Shown: positions 1,535-45,549, numbered from the stretch's first letter. The stretch is 52,765 nt of DNA from Rhodocyclaceae bacterium (GCA_003158255.1 PMIH01000030.1:34728-87492), one strand, 5' to 3'. Numbers and translations: made by a program. Notes: generated from the letters alone by a model not told the origin.

Positions 1535-1544
1535 CGCAAGCTCC

Positions 1545-3518: not shown

Positions 3519-3606
3519 GGGGTTTCTCCCTAACAGTGATCAAGGTTCTGGTTTTGTAACGAAGTCAATTCGGGTCAGTCCCGCCCGCGACGCCTGCGCA
3601 AATCGG

Positions 3607-6672: not shown

Positions 6673-7736
6673 TGCGCCCATGCCCGCCGCACGCGACTCA
6701 GCACAATGAGAAAGACCGGAATCCCGAGCAGCTCGGTGACGATGCCAATGGGCAATTCGGTCGCAAACAGGTTGCGCGCCAAGCTGTCGGCGCAGAGCAA
6801 GAAAACCGCGCCCAGACTCGCCGCCGCTGGCAGCAGGCGGGCATTGCCCGGGCCGACCAGCAACCGCGCAATGTGCGGCACGATGAGGCCGATCCAACCG
6901 ATCATGCCGGCGATCGACACGGTCAGCGCCGACACCAGCGTCGCAGTGGCGATGGTGACGAGCCGCACCGTCCGCACCGGCACGCCCAGTGCCTGCGCCT
7001 CGTCGTCGCCCATGGCCAGCGCGTCGAGGGCGCGGCCGAGCAGGCACAGCAGGACAATGCCGGCGACCATGGGCACGGCAGCCCAGGCCATGTCGTTCAG
7101 GTTCACCTGCCCCAGGCTGCCCATCAGCCAATAGACGATGGCCGGCAATTGGTTGTAAGGATCGGCGAGGTACTTCACCACCGATAACAGCGAGGTAAAG
7201 AGGGCGCCGCTGAGAATTCCACCCAGGATCAACATCACCAGCGAGCCGCCACCGAACAGATGGGCGATGCCAACGCCAATACCGACCGCCGCCAACCCGC
7301 CGAGGAAAGCACTGGCCTGCACCAGCAACCAGTTGCCGCCGAGGATGATGCCCAACGCCGCACCTGCGGAAGCGCCGGCCAGCACGCCGAGAAGTCCCGG
7401 TGATACCAGCGGGTTCCGGAACAAGGCTTGGTACGATGCGCCGGAGACCGACAGCGACGCGCCGACCAGGATCGCCGCCAATATGCGTGGCAGGCGAATC
7501 TCGACGATCAGGTTGTGCAGCAACGCGTAGCGATCCGGCTCCATCGAGGTGAGACCTGTGCTCGCCGCCAGGAAGCGCAGCGTCTCCCATGCCGGCAGCG
7601 GATAGCGGCCGAAAGAGAGGGCCAACACCGTCGCCAACAGTGCCAACAACGGTGCAACGAACCAACGCGGCCAGTTCAAGCTCTTTGGCACCGTGGCAGT
7701 CGTCGTCGGCCGCGCAGTGGAAACCATTTCTGTCAC
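6669..7736 (-). CDS. FecCD-family ABC permease
   Basis: 355-aa polytopic hydrophobic ORF with FecCD/BtuC-like segments (LRLPRILAAILVGASLSVSGASYQALFRNPLVSPGLLG). ATGA-coupled to the ATPase gene. Confidence 0.85.
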   Translation of the reverse strand: MTEMVSTARPTTTATVPKSLNWPRWFVAPLLALLATVLALSFGRYPLPAWETLRFLAASTGLTSMEPDRYALLHNLIVEIRLPRILAAILVGASLSVSGASYQALFRNPLVSPGLLGVLAGASAGAALGIILGGNWLLVQASAFLGGLAAVGIGVGIAHLFGGGSLVMLILGGILSGALFTSLLSVVKYLADPYNQLPAIVYWLMGSLGQVNLNDMAWAAVPMVAGIVLLCLLGRALDALAMGDDEAQALGVPVRTVRLVTIATATLVSALTVSIAGMIGWIGLIVPHIARLLVGPGNARLLPAAASLGAVFLLCADSLARNLFATELPIGIVTELLGIPVFLIVLSRVRRAWAQ

Positions 7737-7758
7737 GAACCAATCCCTGCGCTCGACG

Positions 7759-8799
7759 TCAATGAGCCAACAAATCGTCTATGTCCGCATCCGTCGGTGC
7801 GATACCGAAGAACAGGCGATAGAAATCACGCGTCTCGCGCTTCACGTCGAACGGATAGAGGTCGGGGTAAAAGAGGTTCGCCAGCCATTGCGCCCCGAGT
7901 GTGCGCACGACCGAGGGCGGACGGTCGATCCAGTTGTGAGGCCAGCGCGGTACCAGATGGACACGCCCGGCCTTGACGGCGCGAACGTTTTGCCAGCGCG
8001 GATCTGTGCGGATCGCCGCTGCGGCGGTACGATCCTGGACAATGATGATCTCGGGATCGAAGGCCAGCACCTGTTCGAGACCAACGCGCTCCATTCCCAT
8101 GTGATCTTTCGGCTCACATCGATAGACGTTGTAACCACCGGCCAATTCAATGGCCTCTGTGTGGAACGACCGGTTGCAATCGGTGGCGAGGCCATCGGTA
8201 CCCTCTGCGTAATAGATGCGGGGGCGCCGGTTCTCGGGCACCTTGTCCACTGTTACCGCCAACCGGGCCAACGCCTTTTCGACAGACACGGCTTGCGCTT
8301 CGACCGCCGCGTCGCGCCCGAGCAACTTGCCCGTGAAGCGCAACGCACGCGGCCAGTCGGCCAACGTGTCGAGCGTGATGAACACCACCGGAATGCCCAT
8401 CTTGCCGAACGCCTCCTCGATCTTGGTCTGGTCAACGAATGGACTCTTCCAGGCCAGCGCGAGGTCCGGCTTCAAGGCCAGAACGGTCTCCGGGTTCATC
8501 TGCTGACCGACGCCGAAGATGCCGCCCACGACAGGCAAACTTTGCACGTGAGAGGGAAAGAACCGCTTCGCCGGTTCTTCGATCTTGAAGCTGACGCCGA
8601 TCATCAGATCTGGCGCCACTGCGTTTAACAGCACATTGAGTGGCGGTGCAGAACCAAAGACACGGCTGACCTTGTCCGGCACCATCACTTTGCGGCCGGC
8701 CATGTCGATGATCTCACGTGCCAAGGCGACGGAAGCCGCGCTGGCGGCGACGATCACGGTGGCGAGAACAAGCAGGCTACGCTTGAGATTCATGGTCAT
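7759..8799 (-). CDS. periplasmic binding protein, Peripla_BP_2 (FhuD/BtuF) class
   Basis: Trimmed to the ATG at 8799 (MTMNLKRSLLVLATVIVAASAASVALA, a signal peptide). The rest resembles class-8 siderophore/cobalamin binders. Confidence 0.8.
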   Translation of the reverse strand: MTMNLKRSLLVLATVIVAASAASVALAREIIDMAGRKVMVPDKVSRVFGSAPPLNVLLNAVAPDLMIGVSFKIEEPAKRFFPSHVQSLPVVGGIFGVGQQMNPETVLALKPDLALAWKSPFVDQTKIEEAFGKMGIPVVFITLDTLADWPRALRFTGKLLGRDAAVEAQAVSVEKALARLAVTVDKVPENRRPRIYYAEGTDGLATDCNRSFHTEAIELAGGYNVYRCEPKDHMGMERVGLEQVLAFDPEIIIVQDRTAAAAIRTDPRWQNVRAVKAGRVHLVPRWPHNWIDRPPSVVRTLGAQWLANLFYPDLYPFDVKRETRDFYRLFFGIAPTDADIDDLLAH

Positions 8800-8804
8800 G
8801 CTCC

Positions 8805-11042
8805 TCAGAACTTCAGGCTCAGTTTCGCCACCAGGGTGCGCGGCGCACCGGGGTAGTAGATAGCGCCGTTGGCGGTGGTATTCACTTCGTTCGTGACGAT
8901 CTGGCCGATATACTTGCGATCGAATGCGTTCAGCAGCGCAAGCGACGCATCCCAGTTGCCCCAGGAACTCTTGTGGCCATGGCTCAGCGTCAGGTCGGCG
9001 GTGAAGTAGCCGGGAACCCGCTCCGTGTATGTGGTCGTCGCCCAGCGCGGCCCGATGTATTGCAGGACAGGCGCCACCGTCACTCCTTGAAGACTCCAGG
9101 CCACGCCCAGGTTTGCCATCGTCTTTGGCACGTCGGGCAACTGCTTGCCGTTCACCGATAGCGGCGCATTGCCCGCGATATGCACGTCTTCGACGAAATA
9201 GGATCGGCTGTACGAGTAGGCGCCGAACACCCGCAAGATTTCGCTCGGTGTCCAGCCGGCCGCCAGCTGCAAGCCATCGGCTTTGGTATTGCCGACGTTC
9301 TCGGGAAGGACCAACTTGGTCGCCGGGTCGTAGACGCTCACCATCTTGTTGTGGGAGCGTGCGTAATACACCGTGGGATCGAGGTAGACGGTCCCGTACC
9401 GCAGGTGGCCGCCTAGGTCGAGGTTGGTGCTCAGTTCCGGACGAATTTGATCCCAGGTGCTTTGGGATTGACTGGACACGAAAACCGACAAAGCCGGTGC
9501 GCCGATGTTGCGTCCCAGGCTGGCGTGAACTTCCGCCGCCGGGCTGAATTCGTAGCTGAGGCCGATCTGCGGCAGCCAATAACCGTGGGATCGCCCGTCG
9601 ACGCTCTTGCTCGGATCCAGCGTCGCCCGTGCCAAGGCATCATCGGCCGAAACATCCCATGAGGCGCTATTGGTGTTCGTCGTTTTGTAGACATCGATGC
9701 TGGGCAACTTCTCCCACGCGTAGCGGGTACCTCCCTGAACCGTGATGGCATCGAAACGCCGCTGGCCGGTCAGGTAGAAGTTCTGGAACTCGTAGCGGTC
9801 CGCCACCTTGTCCAACAGGCTCCATTGCTGGAAGACCAGATTGCCGCCTGTCACCGAGTATTGCTTGCGCGTCGTCGGCGGCCCTGGCGGCTCGGAGGAC
9901 GTCCACGAATAGCCGAGCTTGATGTCGGTCTCCGCGAGCAGGGTACGCAACTCGCCGGTAAGTCCGTAGACCGAGTGGTCGATCAACCATTTCTGTACCT
10001 GGGTCGCCGAACCGCCAGCGTAGAGGTAGTAACCTTCCTCCGTCGTGTAGAAAGGCTTGAAGGCAAATGATGTCTGCGGCGAGAACGTATATTCAGCCTC
10101 GGCCAGCAGCGCCTGATTACGGAAGTCCTGGCGGTTATAGTTGTAGTGGTCGGAAGAAGCCGGATTATTGGAATAGTCGTAGCTGTTGTAGGCACCCAGA
10201 TTGGTCGCCTGAGCAAAAGTGAGGGGCTTATAGTTGTTCTGGGCTTGATCATTCTGCGCAAAGATCAGTTTCAGCCTGAGATTGTCGAACGCTTGCGCCA
10301 GCGCAACCTCGGCGTTGTCTCGGCTGGAAGGTGCCTTGCCAAAGCCGCGCCATTTGTTGGCCGACGTGTCCGAGGCCGAAACGAATAGCGCGGTGCCGGT
10401 GCTGAGAACCCCAGTGTCGAGGCGGGCAAAATAGCGTTGGAAATTTTCGCTGCCGAAACTGGCTGAAACCTCGCGCCTGGCCTCGGGACGAGGCCAAAGC
10501 AGTTCGCTATCAAGCGCACCAAAAGTGTTGAACAAGCCGCCGCGATCCGCCGCCACCACCCCTTCTGCGATGGAGACGTCGGCCAGATTTTCCTTGTCGA
10601 AGAGGAACAGGCTGCCAGGGCCAGGGCCGGGACCGCCGAGAGGAACACCATCGACCGTGCCCGTCGTGCCGTGCATACTGAGTTCTCCCCGCACACGTAT
10701 GCCCTTTTGGCCGCCCTGCATGTTGTTGAGGCCATAGGCATCAACGTTGGTCTCCATCACGCCGGGAACCAAGGCCACCGAGGTGTATGGGTTCGCCCCG
10801 CCGGGCCTATCGAAAAGACGCAGGGCTTCGCCACCAACCCGATAGACCGTATTCGGGCTGCCACGATCCAGCCGAATCCAGTCTGCTTCTTGTGGTGCCG
10901 GGGCAGTCACGATAACTGTGCCCAGGGTCTTGTCGTCCGCCGTGTCGTCCGCGTATCCGGTCCCGGTACAAAAAACAAAAGTGCTGGACAGGCCTGCCGT
11001 AAGCCATTTGTGCAATGCCCGCTTGTTCAAGCGCTGAATCAT
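8805..11042 (-). CDS. TonB-dependent outer-membrane receptor
   Basis: 745-aa ORF with a signal peptide, a plug domain and the C-terminal LVAKLSLKF. It is the first gene of a co-directional, tightly packed gene string running to the left window edge. Confidence 0.85.
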   Translation of the reverse strand: MIQRLNKRALHKWLTAGLSSTFVFCTGTGYADDTADDKTLGTVIVTAPAPQEADWIRLDRGSPNTVYRVGGEALRLFDRPGGANPYTSVALVPGVMETNVDAYGLNNMQGGQKGIRVRGELSMHGTTGTVDGVPLGGPGPGPGSLFLFDKENLADVSIAEGVVAADRGGLFNTFGALDSELLWPRPEARREVSASFGSENFQRYFARLDTGVLSTGTALFVSASDTSANKWRGFGKAPSSRDNAEVALAQAFDNLRLKLIFAQNDQAQNNYKPLTFAQATNLGAYNSYDYSNNPASSDHYNYNRQDFRNQALLAEAEYTFSPQTSFAFKPFYTTEEGYYLYAGGSATQVQKWLIDHSVYGLTGELRTLLAETDIKLGYSWTSSEPPGPPTTRKQYSVTGGNLVFQQWSLLDKVADRYEFQNFYLTGQRRFDAITVQGGTRYAWEKLPSIDVYKTTNTNSASWDVSADDALARATLDPSKSVDGRSHGYWLPQIGLSYEFSPAAEVHASLGRNIGAPALSVFVSSQSQSTWDQIRPELSTNLDLGGHLRYGTVYLDPTVYYARSHNKMVSVYDPATKLVLPENVGNTKADGLQLAAGWTPSEILRVFGAYSYSRSYFVEDVHIAGNAPLSVNGKQLPDVPKTMANLGVAWSLQGVTVAPVLQYIGPRWATTTYTERVPGYFTADLTLSHGHKSSWGNWDASLALLNAFDRKYIGQIVTNEVNTTANGAIYYPGAPRTLVAKLSLKF

Positions 11043-11144: not shown

Positions 11145-11160
11145 GGCAAAACCCGTGCCA
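11145..11160 (-). promoter_or_regulatory. sigma-54 (-24/-12) promoter for the TonB/ABC operon
   Basis: The minus strand reads TGGCACGGGTTTTGCC. It has exact GG-N10-GC spacing and is near-consensus. It lies about 100 nt upstream of the receptor ATG at 11042. Confidence 0.6.
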
Positions 11161-11214: not shown

Positions 11215-11228
11215 GTACGGAAGTGTAC
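11215..11228. promoter_or_regulatory. GTAC-N6-GTAC dyad (VnfA-type enhancer box)
   Basis: GTACGGAAGTGTAC. It sits about 55 nt upstream of the minus-strand sigma-54 promoter and about 100 nt upstream of the vnfA sigma-54 promoter. It matches the dyad I recall for A. vinelandii VnfA-dependent promoters. Confidence 0.55.
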
Positions 11229-11389: not shown

Positions 11390-12955
11390 ATGAATTCTTC
11401 CGTACCTCACCTTTGCGAATGCGACCTCGGCGAATGCCGCACCGATCTATTGCCCTTGCTCTACGAGATGAGCCGGATCGTCACCGAGAGCAGCAACCTG
11501 TCGGCGACGCTGCAAATCCTGATTCGGCTGATGAAGCGTCACATGAAGGTGATCCGCGGCATGGTTACGCTTTACGACACCGACTCGGGAAAGATCTTCA
11601 TCCACGAGAGCTTCGGCCTGACCGAGGAGGAGGCGGCACGCGGCGTCTACTTCCTTGGCGAAGGCATTACCGGCCGTGCGGTCGAGACCGGTCAGACCAT
11701 CGTCGTACCGCGCATCAGCGACGAACCGGAATTTCTCAACCGAACCGGCAGCCGCAACGATCTTGCCGATTCGAAACTGTCATTCCTCTGCGTACCGATC
11801 ATGCGGGGCCGCAAGGTGATGGGCACCATCAGTGCGGAGCGCATCTACGACAACAGCCGCCTGCTCAAGCTGGACGTCGAGATCCTGTCCATCCTGGCCA
11901 CCACCACTGCCCAAGCGGTCGAGCTCTACCTGCTTGAAAACGTGCGCAAGGTGGAACTCGAAGCCGAAAACCGCCGACTGCTCAACGCGCTGAAGGAAAA
12001 GTTCAAGCCGGACAACATCATCGGCAATTCGAAGCCGATGCAGGAGGTGTACAAACTGATCGAGAAGGTGCGGCGCTCCCGCACTACGGTGCTGATCCTG
12101 GGCGAGAGCGGGGTCGGCAAGGAGCGAGTGGCGCACGCCATCCACTACAACAGCCCCAATAGCGCAGGCCCGTTCGTCATCTTCAATTGCGCCGCTCTGC
12201 CGGAGACCGTCATCGAAAGCGAACTGTTCGGCCACGAGAAAGGCTCCTTTACGGGCGCAACCAACCTGCGCAAGGGCCGCTTCGAGGAAGCGGACGGCGG
12301 TACCATCTTTCTCGACGAGATCGGCGAACTGTCGCTGTCGATGCAGGCGAAACTCCTGCGGGTGCTGCAAGAGAAGTCCTTCGAGCGGGTCGGCGGCAAT
12401 ACCACCATCAAGGTGGAACTGCGGGTACTCGCCGCCACCAACCGCGACCTGCCCGACATGGTCGCCAACGGCTCTTTCCGCGAGGACCTGTATTACCGCC
12501 TCAACGTCTTTCCGATCACCATTCCGCCGCTACGCGAACGCGGCAACGACATCGTCGCGTTGGCCGACTACTTCGTCGCCAAATTTGCCAGCGAAATGGG
12601 TATCGACGTTCACCGCATTTCCACCCCGGCACTGAACATGCTGCTCTGCTATCACTGGCCCGGCAACGTGCGCGAACTGGAGAACGTCATCGAGCGTGCG
12701 ATGCTGCTCGCCGACGACGGCGTGATTCATGGCTACAACCTGCCACCTTCCCTGCAAACGCCAGTGGTGTCGGAAATTGCCGGCGGCGGAAGTCTTGAAG
12801 CGCGCCTCGGCACCGTCGAATACGAGATGATCGTCGAGGCGCTGAAGCTCCATCACGGCAACATGACCGATGCGGCCGCCCAACTCGGCCTGACGCGGCG
12901 CATCCTCGGTCTGCGCATGTCGAAGTACAAGCTCGACCACAAGGAGTATCGCTGA
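11390..12955 (+). CDS. vnfA: sigma-54-dependent transcriptional activator VnfA
   Basis: 521 aa with an N-terminal CECDLGEC (CxCxxxxC) motif characteristic of VnfA. It has a GAF-like domain, an AAA+ core (GESGVGKE, GAFTGA-type ESELFGHEKGSFTGA) and a C-terminal HTH. Confidence 0.9.
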   Translation: MNSSVPHLCECDLGECRTDLLPLLYEMSRIVTESSNLSATLQILIRLMKRHMKVIRGMVTLYDTDSGKIFIHESFGLTEEEAARGVYFLGEGITGRAVETGQTIVVPRISDEPEFLNRTGSRNDLADSKLSFLCVPIMRGRKVMGTISAERIYDNSRLLKLDVEILSILATTTAQAVELYLLENVRKVELEAENRRLLNALKEKFKPDNIIGNSKPMQEVYKLIEKVRRSRTTVLILGESGVGKERVAHAIHYNSPNSAGPFVIFNCAALPETVIESELFGHEKGSFTGATNLRKGRFEEADGGTIFLDEIGELSLSMQAKLLRVLQEKSFERVGGNTTIKVELRVLAATNRDLPDMVANGSFREDLYYRLNVFPITIPPLRERGNDIVALADYFVAKFASEMGIDVHRISTPALNMLLCYHWPGNVRELENVIERAMLLADDGVIHGYNLPPSLQTPVVSEIAGGGSLEARLGTVEYEMIVEALKLHHGNMTDAAAQLGLTRRILGLRMSKYKLDHKEYR

Positions 12956-12963
12956 ATGAATTC

Positions 12964-12977
12964 GTACGGAAACGTGC
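12964..12977. promoter_or_regulatory. degenerate VnfA-type box
   Basis: GTACGGAAACGTGC, with one mismatch in the right half. It lies 41 nt upstream of the next box. Confidence 0.4.
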
Positions 12978-13004
12978 GTCCCTTTCTGCGAATGGTTCCG
13001 AACC

Positions 13005-13018
13005 GTACGGAAATGTAC
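13005..13018. promoter_or_regulatory. GTAC-N6-GTAC dyad (VnfA-type box)
   Basis: GTACGGAAATGTAC, about 25 nt upstream of the sigma-54 element at 13041. Confidence 0.55.
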
Positions 13019-13040
13019 GCAAGAACCGGCTCTGATGGCA

Positions 13041-13056
13041 TGGTCCGATGCTTGCA
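13041..13056 (+). promoter_or_regulatory. sigma-54 promoter for the Cys-rich ORF-vnfENX-nfu operon
   Basis: TGGTCCGATGCTTGCA with GG-N10-GC spacing and a good -12 TTGCA. It is 38 nt upstream of the ATG at 13094. Confidence 0.5.
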
Positions 13057-13093
13057 ACATCAGCTTGTCCGCTTGCCCAACGAGGAGTGCGCC

Positions 13094-13495
13094 ATGCCAA
13101 ACGACATCACCGCGAATACCGCCGCGACGATCGCCACATGCAAGATCTGCACGATACGGCTGGAGCAGATCTGCTACCGGCGTGCCTGGTGGTTTCGTGT
13201 CTTCCGCGAGGTGCTTGCCACGGGCATACGTATCTTTGCGCTCGCCTACGGCATGCGTGCAAGCGAGCATCCGCCGCGTTCGCCCATGTGCCACCGCTGC
13301 CTGCGCTTTCGCAAAAACGCGCTCAAGGCGCGCTCACCGCTCTTCACCTGGCTCGACGGCTACCTCAATCCAATCTTCAATCGCGTCCGCGATTCGCTGC
13401 TGACGCCCGAAGAACTCGAACAGGCTCGCGATCTGGCGAGCCGTGCCGCCACGACTGACTTTTACGACAAACCCGTCGCCACGCGCTCGCACTGA
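13094..13495 (+). CDS. hypothetical Cys-rich protein (two CxxC pairs, one amphipathic/hydrophobic segment)
   Basis: Trimmed to the ATG at 13094, which is preceded by GAGGAG; 133 aa. Contains CKIC ... CHRC and WWFRVFREVLATGIRIFALAYG. It is the first ORF downstream of the sigma-54 promoter and 33 nt before vnfE. I recognise no family. Confidence 0.5.
   Translation: MPNDITANTAATIATCKICTIRLEQICYRRAWWFRVFREVLATGIRIFALAYGMRASEHPPRSPMCHRCLRFRKNALKARSPLFTWLDGYLNPIFNRVRDSLLTPEELEQARDLASRAATTDFYDKPVATRSH
13439..13463 (-). repeat. dispersed 25-bp motif copy
   Basis: Motif strand: AAAAGTCAG TCGT GGCGGCACGGCT. It is antisense to the 3' part of the Cys-rich ORF. Confidence 0.6.
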
Positions 13496-17148: not shown

Positions 17149-18522
17149 TCATCGTCCACGTTGTTCGATCCACGGACAAAGCACAAGTCTTCCGGTCGGC
17201 GAATCGAACAAGCGAATTAACTCTCTCGCCAGGCGATCAATGCCAGGGAACCCAATGGCGGCTCGGTTCAGTTCGTCGCGACCGCAATCGTCCATGATCG
17301 AGTAGCCAGCCGTGCGAAACCCTGCCGCGTCCTGACCCAGGCCATCGATCAGGTCTGGCTGAACCTTGCGCAATAGTCCATCGACTTCAACCGGCGTCAT
17401 TTCCTGATAGCGGCGCGGTGTTTCAGGAATATGCCAGCGCCCTTCCCGATCCGGCCAGCCCTGCAAGGCACTGCCAACGCGGATGCCGAAGTCGGCATAG
17501 ACACGGACATCGCGCGGATGCAACGGTGCGAAGGAGAAATACAGCTTTCCATCGAGCCGGCGCCGACTCGCGGTCAGCGACGCTTTCACGTCGGATGAGT
17601 GATCGGCGATCATGCGTTCGGCCTTGCAGGCGACCTCGTTATCGAAGCAAGCAGCGATTGCGCGCAAGCTCTCGCGCGTTGCCGTCGGGCCGAGAAAACT
17701 GACCTCTATCGATGGCAACCCGAACTGTTGCTCCAACTTCCTGACCCAATATTCCATGTCCACACTGACGACCAGCCGACCAGAGCCAAGACCGGCGACT
17801 TGCGACCGATCGCTGCCTCCCGGCCAGCGCGCCACGACGCGCAGCCCCAGATCGACCAGCAGGCGCTCGATATTGCGCCAAGCGCCATTCATTTCCCGGC
17901 AAAGCAGGACAACATCGCGCGGGCCGGGCTCAACGTCTTGCGCAGCCCACTCCCGCCATGTGCCAATGATGGTGTTGTGCGTCTCGCCTATTCCGTCGCC
18001 GCGTCGGAAACCGGCACATTGAACCGGGATCACGGGCTTTCGCAGTTCGCGACTCGTGTGCTTCGCCACGCTCTCGATATCGTCGCCGATTAGGGCAATG
18101 GGGCACGTGGAAGGCAACGTCATGCCCCGATTGCGGGGAAACAGCCCGTCGGCTTCGACGACGGCGCGAGCCAGTTTGTTTGCGCCGCCGAATACAACAT
18201 CCTTCTCCTGAAAATCGGTGCTCAGGTTGATGCCGCTGAACACCTCCGCGCCGGAAATGCCATCGACCTGCGGACGATTGCCGTGGGCATAGACCCCGCA
18301 ACCGATCGGACCGTTGGTGATGTGCAGCAGGTCGCGGACCGGTGCCCAGAAAGTCGTGCTTTGGCCACCGTAGAGACATCCGCCGGTGGCGGCACGTCCG
18401 ACCTGAAGGCGATTCAAGGCGTAGTTCCAGGGCGGCATGGATACCGCTGGACCGCCCGGCGCCAGGGACGGGTACTCGTCCTGTTGCCGGTGAAGCTTCT
18501 CTGTGGGGAGCCGGGCGTTCAT
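17149..18522 (-). CDS. orphan nitrogenase component-1 family protein (NifD/NifE-like alpha-type subunit), function unknown
   Basis: 457 aa from the ATG at 18522 (alternative TTG at 18528). It aligns by eye with VnfE in this window: GGCLYGGQ, ITNGPIGCGV, STCPIALIGDDI, PVQCAGF. The cofactor-ligand position VVCSK is VVSVD here. There is no signal peptide and no adjacent K/N-type or H-type partner. Confidence 0.75.
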   Translation of the reverse strand: MNARLPTEKLHRQQDEYPSLAPGGPAVSMPPWNYALNRLQVGRAATGGCLYGGQSTTFWAPVRDLLHITNGPIGCGVYAHGNRPQVDGISGAEVFSGINLSTDFQEKDVVFGGANKLARAVVEADGLFPRNRGMTLPSTCPIALIGDDIESVAKHTSRELRKPVIPVQCAGFRRGDGIGETHNTIIGTWREWAAQDVEPGPRDVVLLCREMNGAWRNIERLLVDLGLRVVARWPGGSDRSQVAGLGSGRLVVSVDMEYWVRKLEQQFGLPSIEVSFLGPTATRESLRAIAACFDNEVACKAERMIADHSSDVKASLTASRRRLDGKLYFSFAPLHPRDVRVYADFGIRVGSALQGWPDREGRWHIPETPRRYQEMTPVEVDGLLRKVQPDLIDGLGQDAAGFRTAGYSIMDDCGRDELNRAAIGFPGIDRLARELIRLFDSPTGRLVLCPWIEQRGR

Positions 18523-18524
18523 GA

Positions 18525-19619
18525 TCAATTGTTCATGTCGTTGCGCCGCAGTCCATCCGGTCCCTTGCCGGCAAGCATCAGATCGAGTTCGCGCTCGCTG
18601 AGGTGGTAGCGATAGAAGCGGGCGTAGTAGTCACGGAATTCCTGCCGCAGATCGAGATCGGGGAACAGTTGCGGATACAGTTCCTTCGCCAGGTAGAGCA
18701 TCAGCAGCACGCCCTCGGTGGACCCGTCCCAGTAGAAGACGCCTTCGGGCAGCTCATGCACTTGACCGGTCCGAACGGCGGTGACCTGCGCCCAGCGCGG
18801 ATTACCGGTGACCAGTTCGGCGGAATACATGCGGCCGATGTTGATGACCTGGGGATCCCATTTCAGAATCTCCTCGATGGAAACCTCGCCCTGGCCAACG
18901 AAGGAATGTTGCTTCACCACCATGTCCGCCCCGGCGATGACGCCGTACCAGAAGGTGTGGGACGACAGGCCATGGGTGCGCGTGGCGCTTGGCCCGCGCA
19001 CATGGAAGAGTCGGACCTTCTTTTCCTCCGGTATCCGGTCTGTGCGCGAACGCACCATGGCCACCATCCGGTCGTGATAGGCGCACCACTCCTCGGCCCT
19101 GGCCTCGTACTCCGGACCGAGCACTCGGCCGAAGAGGCGCAGCATCCGCTTTCGGGATTCGACGAAAGCCTCGATGCTGTCGATCTTGTCCGTCCCCATG
19201 GTTTGCGAGACCAGGACAGGCACGCCCATCCGCGCGAGTGTGTCGATCTTGACCGGGTCCGGGTAGCCGTAGGTGCGGAACACGACGTCCACTCGCTGTT
19301 TCAACAGCTCCTCGGTGTTCGGGTTGGAAGCCAGTTGCTGGATACCATCTACGGCGGGATTGGTCTGCCGCATCCAGGGCGCATTGGTCCGGATCATCAT
19401 GGCGATTCGGTCGCTGGCGCCCAGCAGAAACAGCTTTTCATAGCACAGCACCTCCAGGCAAGCGATGCGGCCAACCCGCGCCGGGATCGCCACTTGGTTC
19501 CCGGCCATGTCGATCACTGACCTTGCGGCGGGCGGTGTTTTCGGCACCGGCGGTTCCCCGCAACCACCGGCCAGGAACATCGCGGCCAGAAGCGGAGCGA
19601 AGCGCAATCGACATGCCAT
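18525..19619 (-). CDS. lipoprotein, Peripla_BP_2 (FhuD/BtuF) class periplasmic binding protein
   Basis: Trimmed to the ATG at 19619. MACRLRFAPLLAAMFLAGGCGEPP looks like a lipoprotein signal with a lipobox-like LAGGC. The body resembles class-8 binders. Its stop is 2 nt before the NifD/E-like start. Confidence 0.75.
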   Translation of the reverse strand: MACRLRFAPLLAAMFLAGGCGEPPVPKTPPAARSVIDMAGNQVAIPARVGRIACLEVLCYEKLFLLGASDRIAMMIRTNAPWMRQTNPAVDGIQQLASNPNTEELLKQRVDVVFRTYGYPDPVKIDTLARMGVPVLVSQTMGTDKIDSIEAFVESRKRMLRLFGRVLGPEYEARAEEWCAYHDRMVAMVRSRTDRIPEEKKVRLFHVRGPSATRTHGLSSHTFWYGVIAGADMVVKQHSFVGQGEVSIEEILKWDPQVINIGRMYSAELVTGNPRWAQVTAVRTGQVHELPEGVFYWDGSTEGVLLMLYLAKELYPQLFPDLDLRQEFRDYYARFYRYHLSERELDLMLAGKGPDGLRRNDMNN

Positions 19620-19624
19620 CGATG

Positions 19625-21796
19625 TCACAGCTCCGCCTTGACCGTGAACGAAACCACCCGCGGTGCTCCGAGGGTCAGCCCGTCGCCGGAACGGTAGTAG
19701 GTCCAATACGCCTTATCGAACAAGTTGCTGACATTCAGTTTGAAAGTCAGCTTGCGGCCTGCGGCCCTGGTCTGGTAGCGCACGCCGATATCGTAGGTCG
19801 TGGCGCCGTCCAGGTAGTCGGTATTGGCGGAATCCACCGGACGCCTGCCCGAGTAATTCGCCCCACCGGTCGCCGTCAGGCCGGGCAACCCAGTCAGCGC
19901 ATATTCCAGATACAAACGGGCCTGTTGCTCCGGAACGTTGACCGGGGTCTTGCCTTCGAGAGCGGTGTTGTTCTTTGCCTTGGCGACATGGGCGTCTTGC
20001 ACGGTGAGCCCGCCCACTACCGTCAGCCGATCACTGAGCTTGCCGGTGGCAGTGAATTCCAGCCCTTGGTGGATTTCCCGTCCATTCTGCTTATAGACAT
20101 TGTCCGACGGGTCCGTGTATTCGTTGACCTTGTCGATACGGAACAGGGCGGCGGTCAGATCCATCGTGCCCGCGCGGGACTTGACGCCGACCTCGTACTG
20201 ATCGCTCACGCTCGGGGACAGGAGCGTATTGGCGTTGGCCGCCGTGGTCGGCGCCATGCCGCCGTTCGCCAGCCCTTCCATGTAGGAAACGTATAGCGTC
20301 GTTTCGGAAAGCGGTTTGTACATCAAGGCGACGCTGGGCGTGACCTTGCTCTGGTCATAATCCTTGGCGGAAAGCGCGGTACCGCTCCCCCAACGGTCGA
20401 GTTTTATCGACGCGCGGCTGACACCCAACAGGGCCGACCACGCATCACCGAATACCACGCGATCACCCAGTACCCAGTTATCGAAATGCTGCTGGTACCA
20501 GACGTTGGTCGGCCCGATGGCGAGGCCGGGATTGGCGTATCCGACTGTGTTGTCTATGTTGGAGGTACCCAACACCTTGGACACATCGTCGCCCCGCGTA
20601 TAGAGGAAGCTGGTCCCGGTATAGCCAAACGTCACCGTGTGCGCCAGCGACCCAGTATGGAACGCGGCATCCAACAGGGCGTAGGCGGAGCGGGTCTTTT
20701 CCGTCTGGCGGGTGCTGCCGATCGCCTTCTCGCTGTAGTTGCCCGCGTTGTCGGTCAACGTGGCGTTGACGAACAGGTAGTCCCGCCACATGTCGCCATA
20801 ACGGTAAGCGGAACGGAAGCTAAAGGTATCGTTCAATGCCGATTCGAGTCCCGCACCCACCACAGTCTTCTCGGCTTTGTTGTAGGTCCAGTCCTGACCG
20901 TATTGGGTGTTCGCGCTGAACCGCGACGCATCGGGCACGAAGATGCCACCGGCCGGATTGACGTTGATGAAGCTGACCAGCCCCGACATGTCCAGATCCT
21001 GATGCCAGGCGTCCAGCCACAGGCGGGTATCACGGGTCGGCTTGAAATCGACCACGCCGGAAATTAGGTGTCGCTGCTGTTTGCTGCCATCGATGTAGCC
21101 GTGGCCATCCTCGCCATAAGCATTGACCCGATACCCCCAACGATCGTCGTCGCCCACGTGGCCGCCAGCGTCGCCATGCAAGTAGTTGATGCCCCCTCCG
21201 TATTGGCCGATGGCTACACTGGCGTAGGCGTCTGGAGTGGGCTGCTTGCTCACGTAATTGACCGCACCGCCCAGAGCCGAAAAACCATACAGGAAGCCGG
21301 ACAAACCGTTCAGAACTTCTATCCGCTCCACGTTTTCCAGCGGCACGAAGGTAAAGCTACGATCCACCAATCCGTCGCGCAGGTCGGTCTGATCGGCCGC
21401 CGTGAAACCGCGAACCATCACCCGCGACATGGAGCTATAGCCATTCGACTCCATCAGTGTCGCCACCGTCGGATTGGTCTTCAGCGCGTCGGAGACCGTG
21501 TGGGCGCTACGGTTCTCGATCAACTCGCCCGAAGTGACGTTGAGGGAATACGGCGTGTCCTTGAGCGGCATGCGCCCCAACGGTCCTGCGGTTGCCGTCG
21601 TATTGCGATAGCCGCCGTCCGCCGATCCCTCGCTGGCGTCCAGATGTGAAACGACCTGGACGACAGGCAGTTCGGGGGCATCGGCCACAACCGCAGACTC
21701 CACTGCCCACGCAGCGCTTGCGGGCAATACGGCGACAACCATCAACGTGCAAGCGGAATTGCATTGCCGCGACCAAACCGGATATTCCATTTTCAT
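19625..21796 (-). CDS. TonB-dependent siderophore receptor (FhuA/FhuE-like)
   Basis: Trimmed to the ATG at 21796 (MKMEYPVWSRQCNSACTLMVVAVLPASAAWA, a signal peptide). It has a plug (RVMVRGF, ERIEVLNGLSGFLYG) and the C-terminal FTVKAEL. The ORF-track 5' extension overlaps the promoter. Confidence 0.85.
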   Translation of the reverse strand: MKMEYPVWSRQCNSACTLMVVAVLPASAAWAVESAVVADAPELPVVQVVSHLDASEGSADGGYRNTTATAGPLGRMPLKDTPYSLNVTSGELIENRSAHTVSDALKTNPTVATLMESNGYSSMSRVMVRGFTAADQTDLRDGLVDRSFTFVPLENVERIEVLNGLSGFLYGFSALGGAVNYVSKQPTPDAYASVAIGQYGGGINYLHGDAGGHVGDDDRWGYRVNAYGEDGHGYIDGSKQQRHLISGVVDFKPTRDTRLWLDAWHQDLDMSGLVSFINVNPAGGIFVPDASRFSANTQYGQDWTYNKAEKTVVGAGLESALNDTFSFRSAYRYGDMWRDYLFVNATLTDNAGNYSEKAIGSTRQTEKTRSAYALLDAAFHTGSLAHTVTFGYTGTSFLYTRGDDVSKVLGTSNIDNTVGYANPGLAIGPTNVWYQQHFDNWVLGDRVVFGDAWSALLGVSRASIKLDRWGSGTALSAKDYDQSKVTPSVALMYKPLSETTLYVSYMEGLANGGMAPTTAANANTLLSPSVSDQYEVGVKSRAGTMDLTAALFRIDKVNEYTDPSDNVYKQNGREIHQGLEFTATGKLSDRLTVVGGLTVQDAHVAKAKNNTALEGKTPVNVPEQQARLYLEYALTGLPGLTATGGANYSGRRPVDSANTDYLDGATTYDIGVRYQTRAAGRKLTFKLNVSNLFDKAYWTYYRSGDGLTLGAPRVVSFTVKAEL

Positions 21797-21849
21797 CACT
21801 AGCTCCCGAATTGAGGGTGCCGCCCTCGGGCATCCATGCCTCCTCAATT

Positions 21850-21865
21850 CGCAAGCGCCATACCA
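21850..21865 (-). promoter_or_regulatory. sigma-54 promoter for the receptor-binding protein-NifD/E-like operon
   Basis: The minus strand reads TGGTATGGCGCTTGCG with GG-N10-GC spacing. It is 54 nt upstream of the ATG at 21796. Confidence 0.5.
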
Positions 21866-21897
21866 GATCGATTCTGCGGCTCCCGCGTTACGCCGCT

Positions 21898-21911
21898 GTA
21901 CGAACGATACC
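21898..21911. promoter_or_regulatory. degenerate GTAC-N6 box
   Basis: GTACGAACGATACC, with a weak right half. It lies about 35 nt upstream of the minus-strand -24 element. Confidence 0.3.
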
Positions 21912-21990: not shown

Positions 21991-22004
21991 GTACGAACCG
22001 GAAC
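21991..22004. promoter_or_regulatory. GTAC-N6-GAAC box shared by divergent sigma-54 promoters
   Basis: GTACGAACCGGAAC. It is about 80 nt upstream of the plus-strand promoter at 22082 and about 130 nt upstream of the minus-strand promoter at 21865. Confidence 0.45.
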
Positions 22005-22139: not shown

Positions 22140-24013
<1,874 letters not shown>

Positions 24014-28522: not shown

Positions 28523-29416
28523 ATGCTGCCGCTCGCCGAGCTTCTTGCCGATCAACACCGCTGCTTCGGGCATCGCTGGTCCCTGCCCGAGCATCGGCAG
28601 ATCGAGTTGTATTCCAAACGCAAGAAGCTCGCGTTCGGCGATGCGCCATCGGCGGCCACCGCGCCCGCCGGTACGCTCGGCCTGCTGGCGGCCGGCATGA
28701 TGCTCGAGGCCCATTTGGCCGGCGGCGATCCGCTGCTGATGGAAAGTCAGTCGTCGTGGCACGCCGTGCTGGCGCTGCCGCGCAAGACCGTCACCGACAA
28801 GCTGGTGGCGGAGGTCCATCGCATCCTGCGCATCTTCCGGATTGCCTCGTTTCATCGCGATGGCCGGATGGAAACCAGCGATGGCCTGGTGCGCATGGCT
28901 TGTAACTTTGACCGTTGCGCACTGGCGCTCACCATCACCTCCGCCGGCCTCGATCTGCTCGGCGCCTTCGTGCATCTCTTTCTCGACGCGCCCAACCAGC
29001 CCTATGGCGAGGCCTATGTCGAGCGCCTGCTGATGCAGTACTTCACCGACATCGTCGGCGAGATTCACAAGTTCGCCGACGAGGATCGGGTGCTCTACCA
29101 GTTCCGCTCACCGGGCTACTTCAACCGTCATTTCCGTTTCGATTGCGACAACCCGCGCTGCCACGCCGATGACGATGGCTACCGCTTCGAGATCGGCGCC
29201 GCCTACGCGGATGCCAACCGCTATCCGATCGACTTCTTTTTCACGCACGGCGACGACATTCACATCATTCCGGTCGAAGCGTTGAAGGACGGGTCGCTGA
29301 AGCAAGGTGAACTCTCACGCTGGCGAGCGCGCGAGCCGTTCCGCAAACAACTTCCCACTACCTATCAGCAGCGCTTCGGCCGCGAAGTGATGGTGGTCGG
29401 CCTGCCCATGACTTGA
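28523..29416 (+). CDS. hypothetical protein inside the vnfDGK operon (Cys/His-containing, no family recognised)
   Basis: 297-aa ORF, 36 nt after vnfK and 40 nt before the vnfY-like gene, on the same strand. Motifs are HRCFGHRW, CNFDRC and FDCDNPRCHADDDGY. There is no signal peptide or TM segment. Confidence 0.6.
   Translation: MLPLAELLADQHRCFGHRWSLPEHRQIELYSKRKKLAFGDAPSAATAPAGTLGLLAAGMMLEAHLAGGDPLLMESQSSWHAVLALPRKTVTDKLVAEVHRILRIFRIASFHRDGRMETSDGLVRMACNFDRCALALTITSAGLDLLGAFVHLFLDAPNQPYGEAYVERLLMQYFTDIVGEIHKFADEDRVLYQFRSPGYFNRHFRFDCDNPRCHADDDGYRFEIGAAYADANRYPIDFFFTHGDDIHIIPVEALKDGSLKQGELSRWRAREPFRKQLPTTYQQRFGREVMVVGLPMT
28742..28766 (+). repeat. dispersed 25-bp motif copy
   Basis: GAAAGTCAG TCGT CGTGGCACGCCG. 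It is in sense orientation in the 297-aa ORF, read as E-S-Q-S-S-W-H-A. Confidence 0.7.
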
Positions 29417-30006: not shown

Positions 30007-30750
30007 ATGATCCATATCGATCATGTCTCCGTCCAGCGCGGCGCGCATGAAGTGCTGCACGACATTTCGGCGGACATTCCCAGCGGCGGCATCACTGCGG
30101 TGGTCGGCCCCTCCGGCGTCGGCAAAACGACGCTGCTCGCGACCCTGAACGGACTGCTGCGGCCAAGCAGCGGCGCCATCACCATCGACGGCGTCGGCAT
30201 GCTCGATTCCGGCGAAACGCTGCGCGGCTTTCGTCGGCAAACAGCAACGGTATTCCAGGAGCATGCCCTGATTGACCGCCTGCCGGCCATGGACAATGTT
30301 CTGCTGGGCCTGGCCGATCAGCGCCATCCGCTGTCGCCGCTGCCTTGGTCGCGACCGATGCGCCTGCGCGCCGCCCAGGCGCTCGACGAAGTCGGGCTGC
30401 TGCACCGGGCCACGGCGCGCACAAGCCAACTCTCGGGTGGCGAACGGCAACGGGTCGGCGTGGCCCGCGCGCTGGTGCGCCAGCCGCGCCTGCTGCTCGG
30501 CGACGAGCCGTTCGCCTCGGTCGACCCGGCGTTGATACGCCAATTGGGCAACACCTTGCGCGACATGGTGGCCCGCAGCGGCGCCACGGTGATTCTGGTC
30601 ATGCACCAGATGGAAACCGCGCTATCGCTCGCCGACAAGGTCATCGCCCTGGCGGAGGGCCGCATCGCTTTCGATGGCACGCCCCGTCAGTTCGACCGCT
30701 GTTGCCAGGAAACCGTTTTCAAGACCATTCCGAGAGGAGCACTGTCATGA
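30007..30750 (+). CDS. PhnC-type ABC transporter ATP-binding protein
   Basis: 247 aa. Walker A is GPSGVGKTT, the signature is LSGGERQRV, and Walker B is LLLGDEP. Confidence 0.8.
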   Translation: MIHIDHVSVQRGAHEVLHDISADIPSGGITAVVGPSGVGKTTLLATLNGLLRPSSGAITIDGVGMLDSGETLRGFRRQTATVFQEHALIDRLPAMDNVLLGLADQRHPLSPLPWSRPMRLRAAQALDEVGLLHRATARTSQLSGGERQRVGVARALVRQPRLLLGDEPFASVDPALIRQLGNTLRDMVARSGATVILVMHQMETALSLADKVIALAEGRIAFDGTPRQFDRCCQETVFKTIPRGALS

Positions 30751-31625
30751 GTAGCCAAACAGTTCGCATCTATTTCCTGTTCTTCCTCCTGGCGCTCGCC
30801 ACCTTCGTCGCCATGGCGGCCGAGCGTCCGAACAAGCTGGTCGTCGGTCTGCTGCCCGGCGAGTCCGCACCCACCGTGATGCGCCTCAACGAACCGTTGC
30901 GCGCCTATCTCGAAAAGCGCCTGGGGCTGCCCGTCGAACTCGTGGTCGGCGCCAACTATGCCGCCACCGGCGAAGCATTGCGCTTCGGCCACCTCGACAT
31001 TGCCTACCTCGGCCCGGTCACCTACATCCTGCAAAGCAAGCACGCCAAGCTGGAACCGTTCGCCAGGCCTTCGCACGACATCGTCGGCCCGACCTTCCAG
31101 GCCGTGGTCATCGTGCCTGCGGACAGCCCCGCGAAGACGCTCGCCGACCTGAAGGGCAAGGAAGTCGCTTATGGCGATCCCGCTTCCACCTCCGGCACCT
31201 GGGTGCCGCGCTACATGCTGGTCGAAGCCGGTCTGGTGTCCGGACGCGACTACACGCTGCGCGTGCTCGGCGCCCACGACGCCGTCGCGCTGGCCGTGGC
31301 CAACCACAAGGTCGCCGCCGGCGGTCTTTCCATGCCGATCTACAACCGCCTGCTCAAGGAAGGCAAGATCGACGCCAAGGCCGTGCGCATCCTCGCCGAG
31401 TCGCCGGCCATTCCCGAATACATGTGGACCTTCCGCCAGGGGATCGACCCGGCCTTCAAGGAAGAGATCCGCAAGGCCTTCATCACCGTCAACGATTCCG
31501 AGGCGCTTAAGGTCTTCCGCGCCGAGGCCTTCATTCCTTGCGTCGATTCCGATGTTGATCGCGTGCGCGGCTGGATCGGCGCCATTACCAAGGATCGGCC
31601 GGACTCGGTCGAGATCGTGAAATGA
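30747..31625 (+). CDS. PhnD-family periplasmic solute-binding protein (exported paralogue)
   Basis: ATG at 30747 with an ATGA overlap on the ATPase gene. MSSQTVRIYFLFFLLALATFVAMAAE is a signal peptide. The body contains LLPGES...LDIAYLGPVTY...TSGTWVPRYML, typical of phosphonate/oxyanion binders. Confidence 0.8.
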   Translation: MSSQTVRIYFLFFLLALATFVAMAAERPNKLVVGLLPGESAPTVMRLNEPLRAYLEKRLGLPVELVVGANYAATGEALRFGHLDIAYLGPVTYILQSKHAKLEPFARPSHDIVGPTFQAVVIVPADSPAKTLADLKGKEVAYGDPASTSGTWVPRYMLVEAGLVSGRDYTLRVLGAHDAVALAVANHKVAAGGLSMPIYNRLLKEGKIDAKAVRILAESPAIPEYMWTFRQGIDPAFKEEIRKAFITVNDSEALKVFRAEAFIPCVDSDVDRVRGWIGAITKDRPDSVEIVK

Positions 31626-34132: not shown

Positions 34133-34900
<768 letters not shown>

Positions 34901-34914
34901 TCCAGCGCGGGCAT

Positions 34915-34946
34915 GGAAATGACTGCTATCGTTAGCAGCCATTTCC
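34915..34946 (+). terminator. 14-bp hairpin between modA and modD (attenuator/partial terminator candidate)
   Basis: GGAAATGACTGCTA-TCGT-TAGCAGCCATTTCC with one mismatch, followed by TTGTTAACTTTG. It could uncouple binding-protein levels from the downstream genes. Confidence 0.4.
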
Positions 34947-34976
34947 TTGTTAACTTTGCGCCACGAAGATCGCACC

Positions 34977-38835: not shown

Positions 38836-38883
38836 TGCGGCATTCTGTGCGATGATTCCGCCCACTCAAACGGCATCGGAATC

Positions 38884-42957: not shown

Positions 42958-43020
42958 AACCGGTACACTCTCGCAATTCCGTTCCACCGGCGCTCCTGCC
43001 GGCTTCACTTGGAGACTGCC

Positions 43021-43974: not shown

Positions 43975-43981
43975 CGAGAGG

Positions 43982-44967: not shown

Positions 44968-44975
44968 ATCGCCCC

Positions 44976-45461: not shown

Positions 45462-45549
45462 GCGGGTAGATCAGGCTGATGATCAGCCACTGATCGGGAA
45501 AGCGGTGGATGGCAATCGATTTGTAAGCCGGCTAAAGCCGGCATTCATG

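Follow-up and report, generated by a model that had tools for sequence, protein, structure and literature searches.

Background

The means by which diazotrophs acquire vanadium (V) and trace molybdenum (Mo), and hand these metals over to cofactor assembly, are largely a gap in knowledge, and we know of no V donor equivalent to NifQ. Considered here is a trio of genes, encoding a TonB-dependent receptor (TBDT), a substrate-binding lipoprotein and a homologue of the nitrogenase subunit NifD (the NifD-like protein), in a 52,765 nt stretch of Rhodocyclaceae bacterium DNA (GCA_003158255.1 PMIH01000030.1:34728-87492), the whole of which is termed the window. The closest described counterpart is the Avin_39890-39880-39870 operon of Azotobacter vinelandii, whose last gene has been remarked upon as NifD-like (PMC9542535).

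In A. vinelandii, Avin_39890 is a direct target of VnfA1 in chromatin immunoprecipitation sequencing (ChIP-seq) and has a sigma-54 promoter of 'Class B', a group strongly activated only when Mo and V are both absent (Appia-Ayme et al. 2022, PMC9542535). When assayed by quantitative reverse transcription PCR, the values for this gene were 0.5 with V and 332 under Fe-only conditions (Table S1 of PMC9542535). Its activation relies on VnfA1, with a strong co-dependence on VnfA3, its expression is not significantly changed in an anfA deletion, and all Class B promoters need VnfZ, a paralogue of the vanadate-binding VodA encoded in the arrangement vnfZ-vnfA3; control of the promoter by V was inferred to act through VnfZ (PMC9542535).

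The arrangement is thus already published, its function is not, and the present trio is a further member in a more telling genomic position. It is very probably a sigma-54-dependent, VnfA-type-activated operon of the metal-acquisition branch of the vanadium-nitrogenase regulon, the last gene of which encodes a functional, selected paralogue of NifD with the electron-entry side kept and the cofactor side rebuilt. New here are the family-wide synteny, rarity and ligand pattern of the NifD-like protein, a sister clade linked to vnfENX and an adjacent VnfZ-like gene.

An uptake operon ending in a NifD-like gene

The trio and its promoter region consist of the following features.

17149-18522, minus strand: NifD-like gene, 457 aa, very probable orthologue of Avin_39870, predicted cytoplasmic
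18525-19619, minus strand: Peripla_BP_2 (class III) substrate-binding lipoprotein gene, 364 aa, exported
19625-21796, minus strand: TBDT gene, siderophore type, 723 aa, with signal peptide
21851-21865, minus strand: sigma-54 (-24/-12) element, TGGTATGGCGCTTGC; 16-nt form at 21850-21865, TGGTATGGCGCTTGCG
21888-21901, minus strand: imperfect second box, GTACAGCGGCGTAA, one mismatch from GTAC-N6-GTAC and weak alone
21991-22004, minus strand: VnfA-type activator box GT(T/A)C-N6-GTAC, GTTCCGGTTCGTAC, a perfect GTTC-N6-GTAC
22140-23048, plus strand: PhnD-like (VnfZ-like) gene, divergent from the trio, with a Phosphonate-bd domain scoring 197 bits

A preliminary description of the window had placed three open reading frames (ORFs) on the minus strand at these coordinates, and both their positions and the gaps of 5 nt (TBDT to binding protein) and 2 nt (binding protein to NifD-like gene) are as it gave them; the identification of a siderophore-type TBDT, a Peripla_BP_2 lipoprotein and a 457 aa component-1 protein is likewise confirmed by Pfam and NCBIfam models and by signal peptides. 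The TBDT reading frame is open to 21937, and the ATG at 21796 yields the signal peptide. Scanning of the operon for sigma-70-like promoters found none that was internal, terminator-like matches occurred at the level expected by chance, and an Rfam scan of the whole window found no cobalamin, Moco or other riboswitch. Equally in keeping with the earlier account, the trio has neither a beta-type (K/N) nor an Fe-protein gene of its own, vnfN (part of a convergent vnfEN operon) and vnfH both lying within 1-1.5 kb on the opposite strand, and it contains no permease or ATPase, a FecCD/ABC_tran pair being situated 10-12 kb away in the same island. At the other end of the operon the stop codons of convergent genes abut: the plus-strand NifU-like gene ends at 17148 and the NifD-like gene at 17149, with 0 intergenic bases, so there is no space between the two operons for a terminator of conventional type. 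The same convergent layout, with a 3-nt gap between the NifU-like and NifD-like ends, occurs in a metagenome contig (L015 below).

Comparison with A. vinelandii reveals an identical order of the three genes and almost the same spacing (64% identity for the TBDT, 71% for the binding protein and 59%, over 457 residues, for the NifD-like protein), VnfA-type boxes upstream, and NifD-like proteins that keep the P-cluster cysteines without the ligands of the iron-molybdenum cofactor (FeMo-co). Orthology with Avin_39890-39880-39870, and with it the regulon assignment, is therefore held with high confidence. The A. vinelandii locus itself was identified as Avin_39890-39870 because the ChIP peak position, 4,041,526, and the LysR and amidohydrolase neighbours agree. 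The two operons differ in their surroundings: the A. vinelandii copy lies at 4.04 Mb beside a LysR gene, with the vnf genes at ~0.25 Mb, whereas that of the window lies inside a vnf island, between vnfENX-nifU and the VnfZ-like gene plus vnfH, and is accompanied by one vnfA and a vnfZ-like gene not fused to vnfA3. They differ too in that the expression data come from A. vinelandii, the window copy being known from its sequence alone. The earlier statement that no such case had been described does not stand, given the account of the orthologous operon in PMC9542535, which was the only report recovered by literature searches for a nitrogenase-like gene in a TonB operon.

Conservation of the gene order

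The NifD-like protein is rare, being found in 5 of ~185,000 species-representative genomes. The order TBDT, Peripla_BP_2, NifD-like was nevertheless observed in A. vinelandii, Azomonas, beta- and alpha-proteobacterial metagenome-assembled genomes (MAGs) and four metagenome contigs, the exceptions among the loci examined being L009, from the clade, and L021, from a sister group. These loci, designated by number, are as follows.

L001, A. vinelandii: divergent LysR gene upstream, vnf genes not nearby
L004, L005 and L007, Azomonas macrocytogenes: divergent LysR gene upstream
L006, beta-proteobacterial MAG: trio followed by FecCD and ABC genes
L009, alpha-proteobacterial MAG (bin_33), 4.5-kb contig: NifD-like gene first, then Peripla_BP_2 and a 29%-identical TBDT
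L015, metagenome contig: layout as in the window
L017, metagenome contig: trio followed by FecCD and ABC genes, with vnfK, VodABC-like and VnfA-like genes near
L018, metagenome contig: two TBDT/binding-protein pairs, NifD-like, ExbB, ExbD, FecCD, ABC, TonB, vnfDGK
L019, metagenome contig: trio alone, then contig end
L020 (L010 of the genome scan), alpha-proteobacterial MAG: divergent FecCD-ABC-TonB and a convergent vnfENX-nifU cluster
L021, metagenome contig (sister P0121): NifD-like gene with a Peripla_BP_2 gene after it
L022, metagenome contig, vnf island (sister P0122): final gene of a vnfE-vnfN-vnfX-DUF2478/DUF4213/DUF364 operon

Linkage to TBDT and Peripla_BP_2 genes, which the preliminary description had proposed checking through gene neighbourhoods, thus recurs in every clade locus examined, and the gap before the NifD-like start is 1-3 nt in seven of eight loci. 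At none of the clade loci examined is an Oxidored_nitro gene co-directional with or adjacent to the NifD-like gene. Genes of the vnf type are found within 10 kb of the trio in the window, L015, L017, L018 and L020, and FecCD and ABC_tran genes, with or without ExbBD and TonB, lie directly 3' of the NifD-like gene in L006, L017 and L018 and adjacent to it in L020. The P0122 representative, 38% identical to the window protein, occurs in a region (L022 5512-11362) that continues into an SBP_bac_6/CobW/ABC/nitroreductase cluster and a TBDT-FecCD-ABC cluster; its position within a vnfENX operon ties the wider family to genes for assembly of the iron-vanadium cofactor (FeV-co).

The NifD-like protein is a selected paralogue of NifD

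The protein matches Oxidored_nitro (PF00148) over residues 59-439 (148 bits, cutoff 28.6). Of the more specific NCBIfam models, nifD (TIGR01282) scores highest at 237.1 bits (cutoff 653.55), followed by nifE (TIGR01283) at 149.2 (cutoff 505.1), VNFD at 85 and ANFD at 84.5, all well below their cutoffs; BchN, BchB and CfbD models reach 18-25 bits against cutoffs of 268-509. The same ranking is obtained from the PDB, in which NifD of Mo nitrogenase (Mo-NifD) is matched full length at ~245 bits, NifE at 104 and VnfD at 81. A search of 5.8 billion proteins returned clade members 50-99% identical to the query, among them proteins of A. vinelandii and Azomonas macrocytogenes labelled 'oxidoreductase/nitrogenase component 1', and then true NifD at ~34%. 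When 1.84 billion cluster representatives were searched exhaustively, three more (P0121-P0123), at 37-38% identity and scoring above NifD, emerged as sister groups. In a bootstrapped neighbour-joining tree, a fast distance method applied to a sample without AnfD, Mo-type NifE or NifD from outside group I, the clade was supported at 100%, the clade plus sister groups at 99% and the placement of this whole group beside Mo-NifD at 87%, with VnfD and VnfE elsewhere in the tree. Within the limits of that sampling, and with the ranking of hidden Markov model and PDB scores in agreement, the NifD-like group appears to be sister to Mo-NifD.

Phylogeny had been set beforehand as a test of whether the protein is an ordinary VnfE or NifE, an identity rejected by the family scores and the tree position, which put it in a separate, well-supported clade with Mo-NifD. 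It shares with NifE and VnfE an alpha-type Oxidored_nitro domain, three cysteines in the N-terminal domain, the absence of His442 and proximity to vnf genes, but is ~28% identical to the VnfE of the window, has no NifN-type partner and has lost the conserved Cys that NifE and VnfE keep at the position of NifD Cys275.

NifD (PDB 1M1N chain A) is the closest characterised homologue, at ~34% identity over ~90% of the length. The three cluster-ligating cysteines previously noted in the sequence are indeed kept: C49, C75 and C140 correspond to the P-cluster ligands Cys62, Cys88 and Cys154 of NifD and are invariant in 23 clade sequences. So too are C169, equivalent to Cys183, and F111, equivalent to Phe125 of the VFGG motif, which we take to lie at the Fe-protein docking face of NifD. 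The FeMo-co ligands of NifD, by contrast, are absent. At the position of Cys275 the clade has either a gap or a residue that varies between Ser, Gly and Ala, at that of His442 it has a non-conserved residue, and the segment from Gln191 to His195 is deleted or rearranged in the NifD-like protein; the sister groups share all of these losses. The earlier reading of a Ser in place of the cofactor-ligand Cys therefore holds as regards the loss of Cys275, but Ser as a working replacement was rejected, since it is not kept across the clade. Pairwise alignment suggests His182 as the counterpart of NifD His195, where the multiple alignment instead puts a seven-residue deletion. The distribution of similarity along the protein follows the same division, consensus identity to NifD being 0.55-0.65 at residues 61-80 and 101-180, 0.15-0.30 at residues 1-60 and 0.15-0.25 in domain III, which houses the FeMo-co pocket and yet is well kept within the clade.

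An AlphaFold model, with a predicted local distance difference test (pLDDT) score of 79, matches Av1 alpha chains full length with a template modelling (TM) score of 0.72. Across the 23 clade sequences, with identity down to 49%, 81 alignment columns are invariant, and the ratio of non-synonymous to synonymous substitution rates (dN/dS) is 0.24 relative to the 85%-identical orthologue in L015, at the upper end of the range of 0.14-0.24 for the trio genes overall. It is because of this residue pattern, fold match, similarity distribution and dN/dS that the gene is considered to encode a functional, selected paralogue of NifD. A periplasmic location was rejected, as none of the 11 N-termini examined has a signal or Tat motif, as was the possibility that the binding protein acts as a beta-like partner, since it is exported.

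Promoter structure and expected regulation

The sigma-54 promoter and upstream GTAC-type boxes of the earlier account were both found, at frequencies far above expectation. The pattern TGGYAY-N5-TTGC, for which 0.42 matches would be expected in the window, has five, and three of them precede vnfH, the second TBDT gene and the trio. The element of the trio is identical at 15 of 16 positions to that upstream of Avin_39890 (TGGTATGGCGCTTGCT), and seven loci, the window included, keep such an element at a distance of 55-97 nt before the TBDT start. VnfA-type boxes have 12 matches in the window against 0.69 expected, grouped at the promoters of the vnf island. That at 21991-22004 exactly fits the motif published for VnfA1/VnfA3 ChIP-seq targets (PMC9542535), and equivalent boxes were found upstream of the orthologous TBDT genes in seven loci, again counting the window. 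The imperfect second box is at -105 from the ATG, a position at which boxes are present in L004 and L015 also. From the boxes and the A. vinelandii data, the vnfA gene at 11390-12955 is likely to encode the activator of the trio.

The divergent PhnD-like gene encodes a protein with no room for a signal peptide, and its closest relatives share a common start, all without one; relatives of the VodA type, unlike this group, carry a signal peptide. In Azomonas the orthologous gene (70% identical; L024 10001-12546) runs into the start codon of a gene for a GAF-sigma-54 activator, which is how vnfZ and vnfA3 are arranged in A. vinelandii (PMC9542535), and a TBDT/binding-protein pair is divergent from it. 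The window copy is directly upstream of vnfH and uncoupled from any vnfA3-type activator gene. The protein is thus probably the V-sensing co-regulator of this class of promoter, in which case a putative V-sensing co-regulator of Class B promoters would be encoded beside the promoter of the trio. The sigma-54 element of vnfH (23062-23076) and two VnfA boxes (22942-22985) are located in, or just past, the 3' end of the VnfZ-like gene.

Since supplying V leaves the orthologous promoter almost silent, growth without Mo but with V would probably be accompanied by little expression of the trio. Judged by A. vinelandii, the operon resembles a scavenging system induced by starvation rather than a supply route for V-replete conditions.

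The receptor, binding protein and importer genes

The TBDT contains Plug (66 bits) and TonB_dep_Rec_b-barrel (140 bits) domains, passes the TonB-siderophore model TIGR01783 (301.1 bits against a cutoff of 223.5) and scores well under models of B12 and haem receptors; its closest solved structures are FemA, BauA, CntO and FoxA, and its dN/dS relative to L015 is 0.20. The binding protein matches Peripla_BP_2 at 69.2 bits (cutoff 27.5), with a dN/dS of 0.14 in the same comparison. Its N-terminus, MACRLRFAPLLAAMFLAGGC, is a signal peptide ending in the lipobox-like LAGGC, both features being present in most orthologues. Its nearest solved relatives are the uncharacterised 4ovk and MolA HI_1472 (3psa/3psh, E 6e-17), and MolA, which binds molybdate and tungstate, is the nearest that is characterised. 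In common with the MolA-MolBC system of Haemophilus influenzae (HI1470-72), in which a class III binding protein serves a type II ABC importer of molybdate and tungstate, the trio thus includes a full-length MolA homologue and its relatives carry MolB-like FecCD permeases; however, identity to MolA is ~25%, the likeness is one of overall homology, and MolABC, a low-affinity system, has no TBDT or nitrogenase-like gene.

Two types of TBDT and binding protein, ~40% identical to one another, pair with the same NifD-like clade. Both are found in tandem beside a single NifD-like gene in L018 (3361-9985) and L020 (6756-16362), such that one cytoplasmic protein may serve more than one import route. 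In the window, a second uptake operon with its own permease and ATPase is divergent from vnfA.

5884-6675, minus strand: ABC ATPase gene
6669-7736, minus strand: FecCD permease gene
7759-8793, minus strand: Peripla_BP_2 gene
8805-11042, minus strand: second TBDT gene
11146-11160: sigma-54 element of the second uptake operon
11215-11228: palindromic GTAC-N6-GTAC VnfA box of the second uptake operon

This operon could supply the inner-membrane permease and ATPase of the trio. A related pair of uptake clusters is present in L020.

Proposed function and alternative explanations

The operon is likely to have a role in metal scavenging. The reading preferred here is that it forms an uptake module for heterometal starvation, in which an imported metal complex would be accepted or reductively processed in the cytoplasm by the NifD-like protein, acting as an Fe-S protein; the chances of this are judged to be about even, and the acceptor or processor role, already raised in the preliminary description, is plausible. 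By analogy with A. vinelandii, the module would be expressed when the heterometals Mo and V are scarce. The TBDT would bring a chelated metal over the outer membrane, most likely as a Mo- or V-metallophore and possibly as an Fe complex, V or Mo being favoured because of the binding protein's relative MolA and the linkage to vnf genes, and the binding protein would pass this cargo to a FecCD/ABC importer, encoded in the same operon in relatives and elsewhere in the island here. In the cytoplasm, the NifD-like protein would receive or process the cargo. It would assemble either with copies of itself or with a beta-type subunit borrowed for the purpose, the retained cysteines holding an Fe-S cluster at the interface. 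VnfH, AnfH or NifH, as the nitrogenase Fe protein, might then dock on the conserved face and reduce it, the rebuilt domain III binding the imported complex and low-potential electrons serving to free the metal, or to retain it, for the synthesis of FeV-co or FeMo-co. We infer the cargo, oligomeric state, Fe-S cluster, electron donor and release or hand-off chemistry alike. Any specific redox or hand-off mechanism of the NifD-like protein is accordingly put forward tentatively, being somewhat doubtful, and it is unlikely, if worth entertaining, that the protein represents a new class of Fe-protein-reduced, ATP-dependent Fe-S enzyme that frees or captures V, Mo or Fe from imported metallophores. 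The nearest functional parallel is with ferric-siderophore reductases of the FhuF and ViuB/SIP types, cytoplasmic redox proteins encoded with a TBDT, binding protein and ABC importer that free metal from its chelate. This likeness is one of analogy alone, with no relationship of sequence or fold: those are small flavin or [2Fe-2S] proteins, and here the protein is a 457-aa component-1 homologue, presumably needing an ATP-dependent Fe protein.

Several observations weigh against this proposal. Low confidence in the model of the NifD-like protein is confined to the cluster-binding cysteine loops, with pLDDT values below 50 at residues 40-50, 72-112 and 141-145, and the conservation of the docking motif may merely reflect a structural constraint inherited from NifD. 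The TBDT and binding protein look like generic ferric-siderophore parts, the resemblance to MolA being distant, and the clade members in A. vinelandii and Azomonas are far from any vnf genes. Roles throughout the NifD-like family would appear to rest on comparison rather than experiment. The one knockout reported, of Avin_39870, was without phenotype according to PMC9542535; the mutant was examined in the presence of Mo, when the operon is switched off.

Iron supply is a serious rival, because the receptor resembles those for ferric siderophores. On this account a ferric siderophore is imported to meet the Fe demand of the alternative nitrogenases, Mo and V are uninvolved, and the NifD-like protein is a siderophore reductase, for which ATP-coupled electrons from the Fe protein could reduce Fe(III)-catecholates of very low potential. 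The match of the TBDT to the TonB-siderophore model and to FemA, BauA and FoxA, the maximal activity of the A. vinelandii promoter under Fe-only-nitrogenase conditions and the status of FecCD proteins as classic iron-chelate importers all fit; but expression in A. vinelandii was unchanged in the anfA deletion and required VnfZ, a paralogue of VodA (PMC9542535), the family is found in vnf rather than anf islands with a sister clade in a vnfENX operon, and the nearest characterised relative of the binding protein binds molybdate and tungstate, which together make the explanation fairly improbable. The heterometal module could alternatively operate without redox chemistry, the NifD-like protein being a carrier, store or sensor that holds a metal or cofactor precursor in the rebuilt domain-III pocket and delivers it to VnfEN or NifQ, or reports status to VnfA/VnfZ, with neither catalysis nor an Fe protein. 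Component-1 domains and class III binding proteins belong to one structural superfamily (SCOP c.92.2), the remodelled pocket is strongly kept in the clade, its newly invariant residues including S351, Q354, G355, W356, W363 and D398, and the sister-clade gene comes after vnfX and a gene with DUF364, a putative metal-chelation family, in a cofactor-assembly operon. The invariance of the P-cluster cysteines, Cys183 and the Phe125 motif, within the region most similar to NifD, would be hard to explain if electron transfer were unneeded, and this alternative is given a small chance.

The absence of a dedicated beta gene from every locus examined, the retention of the alpha-side P-cluster ligands in what is the closest known NifD paralogue, and the presence of vnfN and vnfK in the same island of the window could all be accommodated by a substitute alpha subunit, pairing with VnfK, AnfK, NifK or VnfN in a hybrid component-1-like complex that could serve as a P-cluster-only scaffold or a maturation intermediate when heterometals are missing. 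This is very unlikely given that the A. vinelandii and Azomonas genes are far from any beta gene, that the protein is co-translated with transport and not nitrogenase genes, and that residues 1-60 diverge strongly from NifD, the N-terminal region of which contacts the beta subunit. The loss of both FeMo-co ligands, together with the reported lack of phenotype of the A. vinelandii knockout with Mo, might suggest the decaying leftover of a nifD duplication, without function, that happens to close an uptake operon. Such a relic is strongly disfavoured, to the point of being barely credible, by an ORF intact at every locus, the 81 invariant columns, dN/dS values of 0.17-0.28, synteny kept across alpha-, beta- and gamma-proteobacteria, and the greater conservation of the NifD-like protein than of either partner where TBDT and binding-protein types differ (L017). 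Hardly more credence attaches to the processing of tetrapyrroles in the manner of DPOR, COR and CfbCD, with an imported haem, corrinoid or chlorophyll derivative being reduced after entry through a BtuB/BtuF-like or haem-type pair of TBDT and Peripla_BP_2 protein. Peripla_BP_2/FecCD systems do also import haem and B12, and to our knowledge the other characterised non-nitrogenase members of the superfamily all act on tetrapyrroles; against this stand the negligible BchN, BchB and CfbD scores and the grouping with Mo-NifD, the low scores of the TBDT against B12 and haem receptor models, the lack of riboswitches in the Rfam scan of the window and VnfA/sigma-54 regulation within metal-cofactor islands.

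Returning to the heterometal-starvation module, the cassette is a concrete candidate for the delivery step because of its VnfA/sigma-54 control, its induction by heterometal starvation in the one organism tested and its repeated location in vnf islands, and because it includes the closest known paralogue of the catalytic subunit, with the electron-entry side alone preserved. Were the NifD-like protein a redox enzyme, nitrogenase-like chemistry would extend from N2 and tetrapyrroles to metal trafficking; were Fe-protein-dependent metal release true, it would be the missing step in heterometal delivery that feeds FeV-co and FeMo-co assembly under metal scarcity. The comparative evidence turns a one-line curiosity into a testable hypothesis of heterometal delivery, directly so owing to the orthologue in the genetically tractable A. 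vinelandii.

The surrounding island

Gene order in the window was established from the gene calls of a matching metagenome contig (ENA ERZ27254220 k141_1081796) and Pfam scans.

224-11042, minus strand: SBP_bac_6, TBDT, globin and luciferase-like oxygenase genes, then the second uptake operon
11390-12955, plus strand: vnfA (GAF, Sigma54_activat and HTH_8 domains), 71% identical to an Azomonas VnfA3-like protein
After vnfA, plus strand: 179-aa ORF, vnfE, vnfN, vnfX and a NifU C-terminal-domain gene
Right of the trio, plus strand: the PhnD-like gene (22140-23048), vnfH, ferredoxin, vnfY-like and vnfDGK
Past vnfDGK, plus strand: 297-aa ORF, NifX-like, VodA-like, VodB-like, modE, modA, modD, nifQ and modB
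Beyond the mod and nifQ genes: type I restriction-modification system and a second GAF-sigma-54 activator

It is on account of this order that the trio is considered to be embedded in a V/Mo cofactor island, in agreement with the location inside a vnf island given by the preliminary description. At the edge of the island, the gene for a third TBDT (1545-3518, minus strand) is in unusual company, with SBP_bac_6 binding-protein (224-1534), bacterial globin (3607-4227) and luciferase-like monooxygenase (4206-5414) genes. The 179-aa ORF between vnfA and vnfE (12956-13495, plus strand) has no Pfam match and is 85% identical in L015; as two overlapping VnfA boxes (12995-13018) sit inside its 5' end, the promoter region of vnfE may overlap the ORF, or the ORF may not be real. 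A 297-aa ORF directly 3' of vnfK (28523-29416, plus strand), also lacking a Pfam match, is kept at 49-56% identity in the same position in L018 (18499-19401) and L017 (578-1240).

The VodA-like ORF of the PhnD family (30345-31625, plus strand; 426 aa) has its binding domain confined to residues 167-403, implying either a long N-terminal extension or a real start further downstream, and is followed by the VodB-like permease gene, with no ATPase identified among the ORFs scanned. The modE-modA-...-modB cluster (33308-37029, plus strand) contains both nifQ (35804-36358) and a gene for a ModD-like QRPTase (34947-35807), and the Mo-donor gene thus appears to be co-operonic with the molybdate transporter. 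In the restriction-modification region (38566-52413), HsdR is apparently split into HSDR_N (38884-39399) and ResIII (39472-41301) portions, and Fic, nucleotidyltransferase and second GAF-sigma-54 activator (50479-52413, minus strand) genes are found nearby, a neighbourhood that hints at a mobile or recently acquired region.

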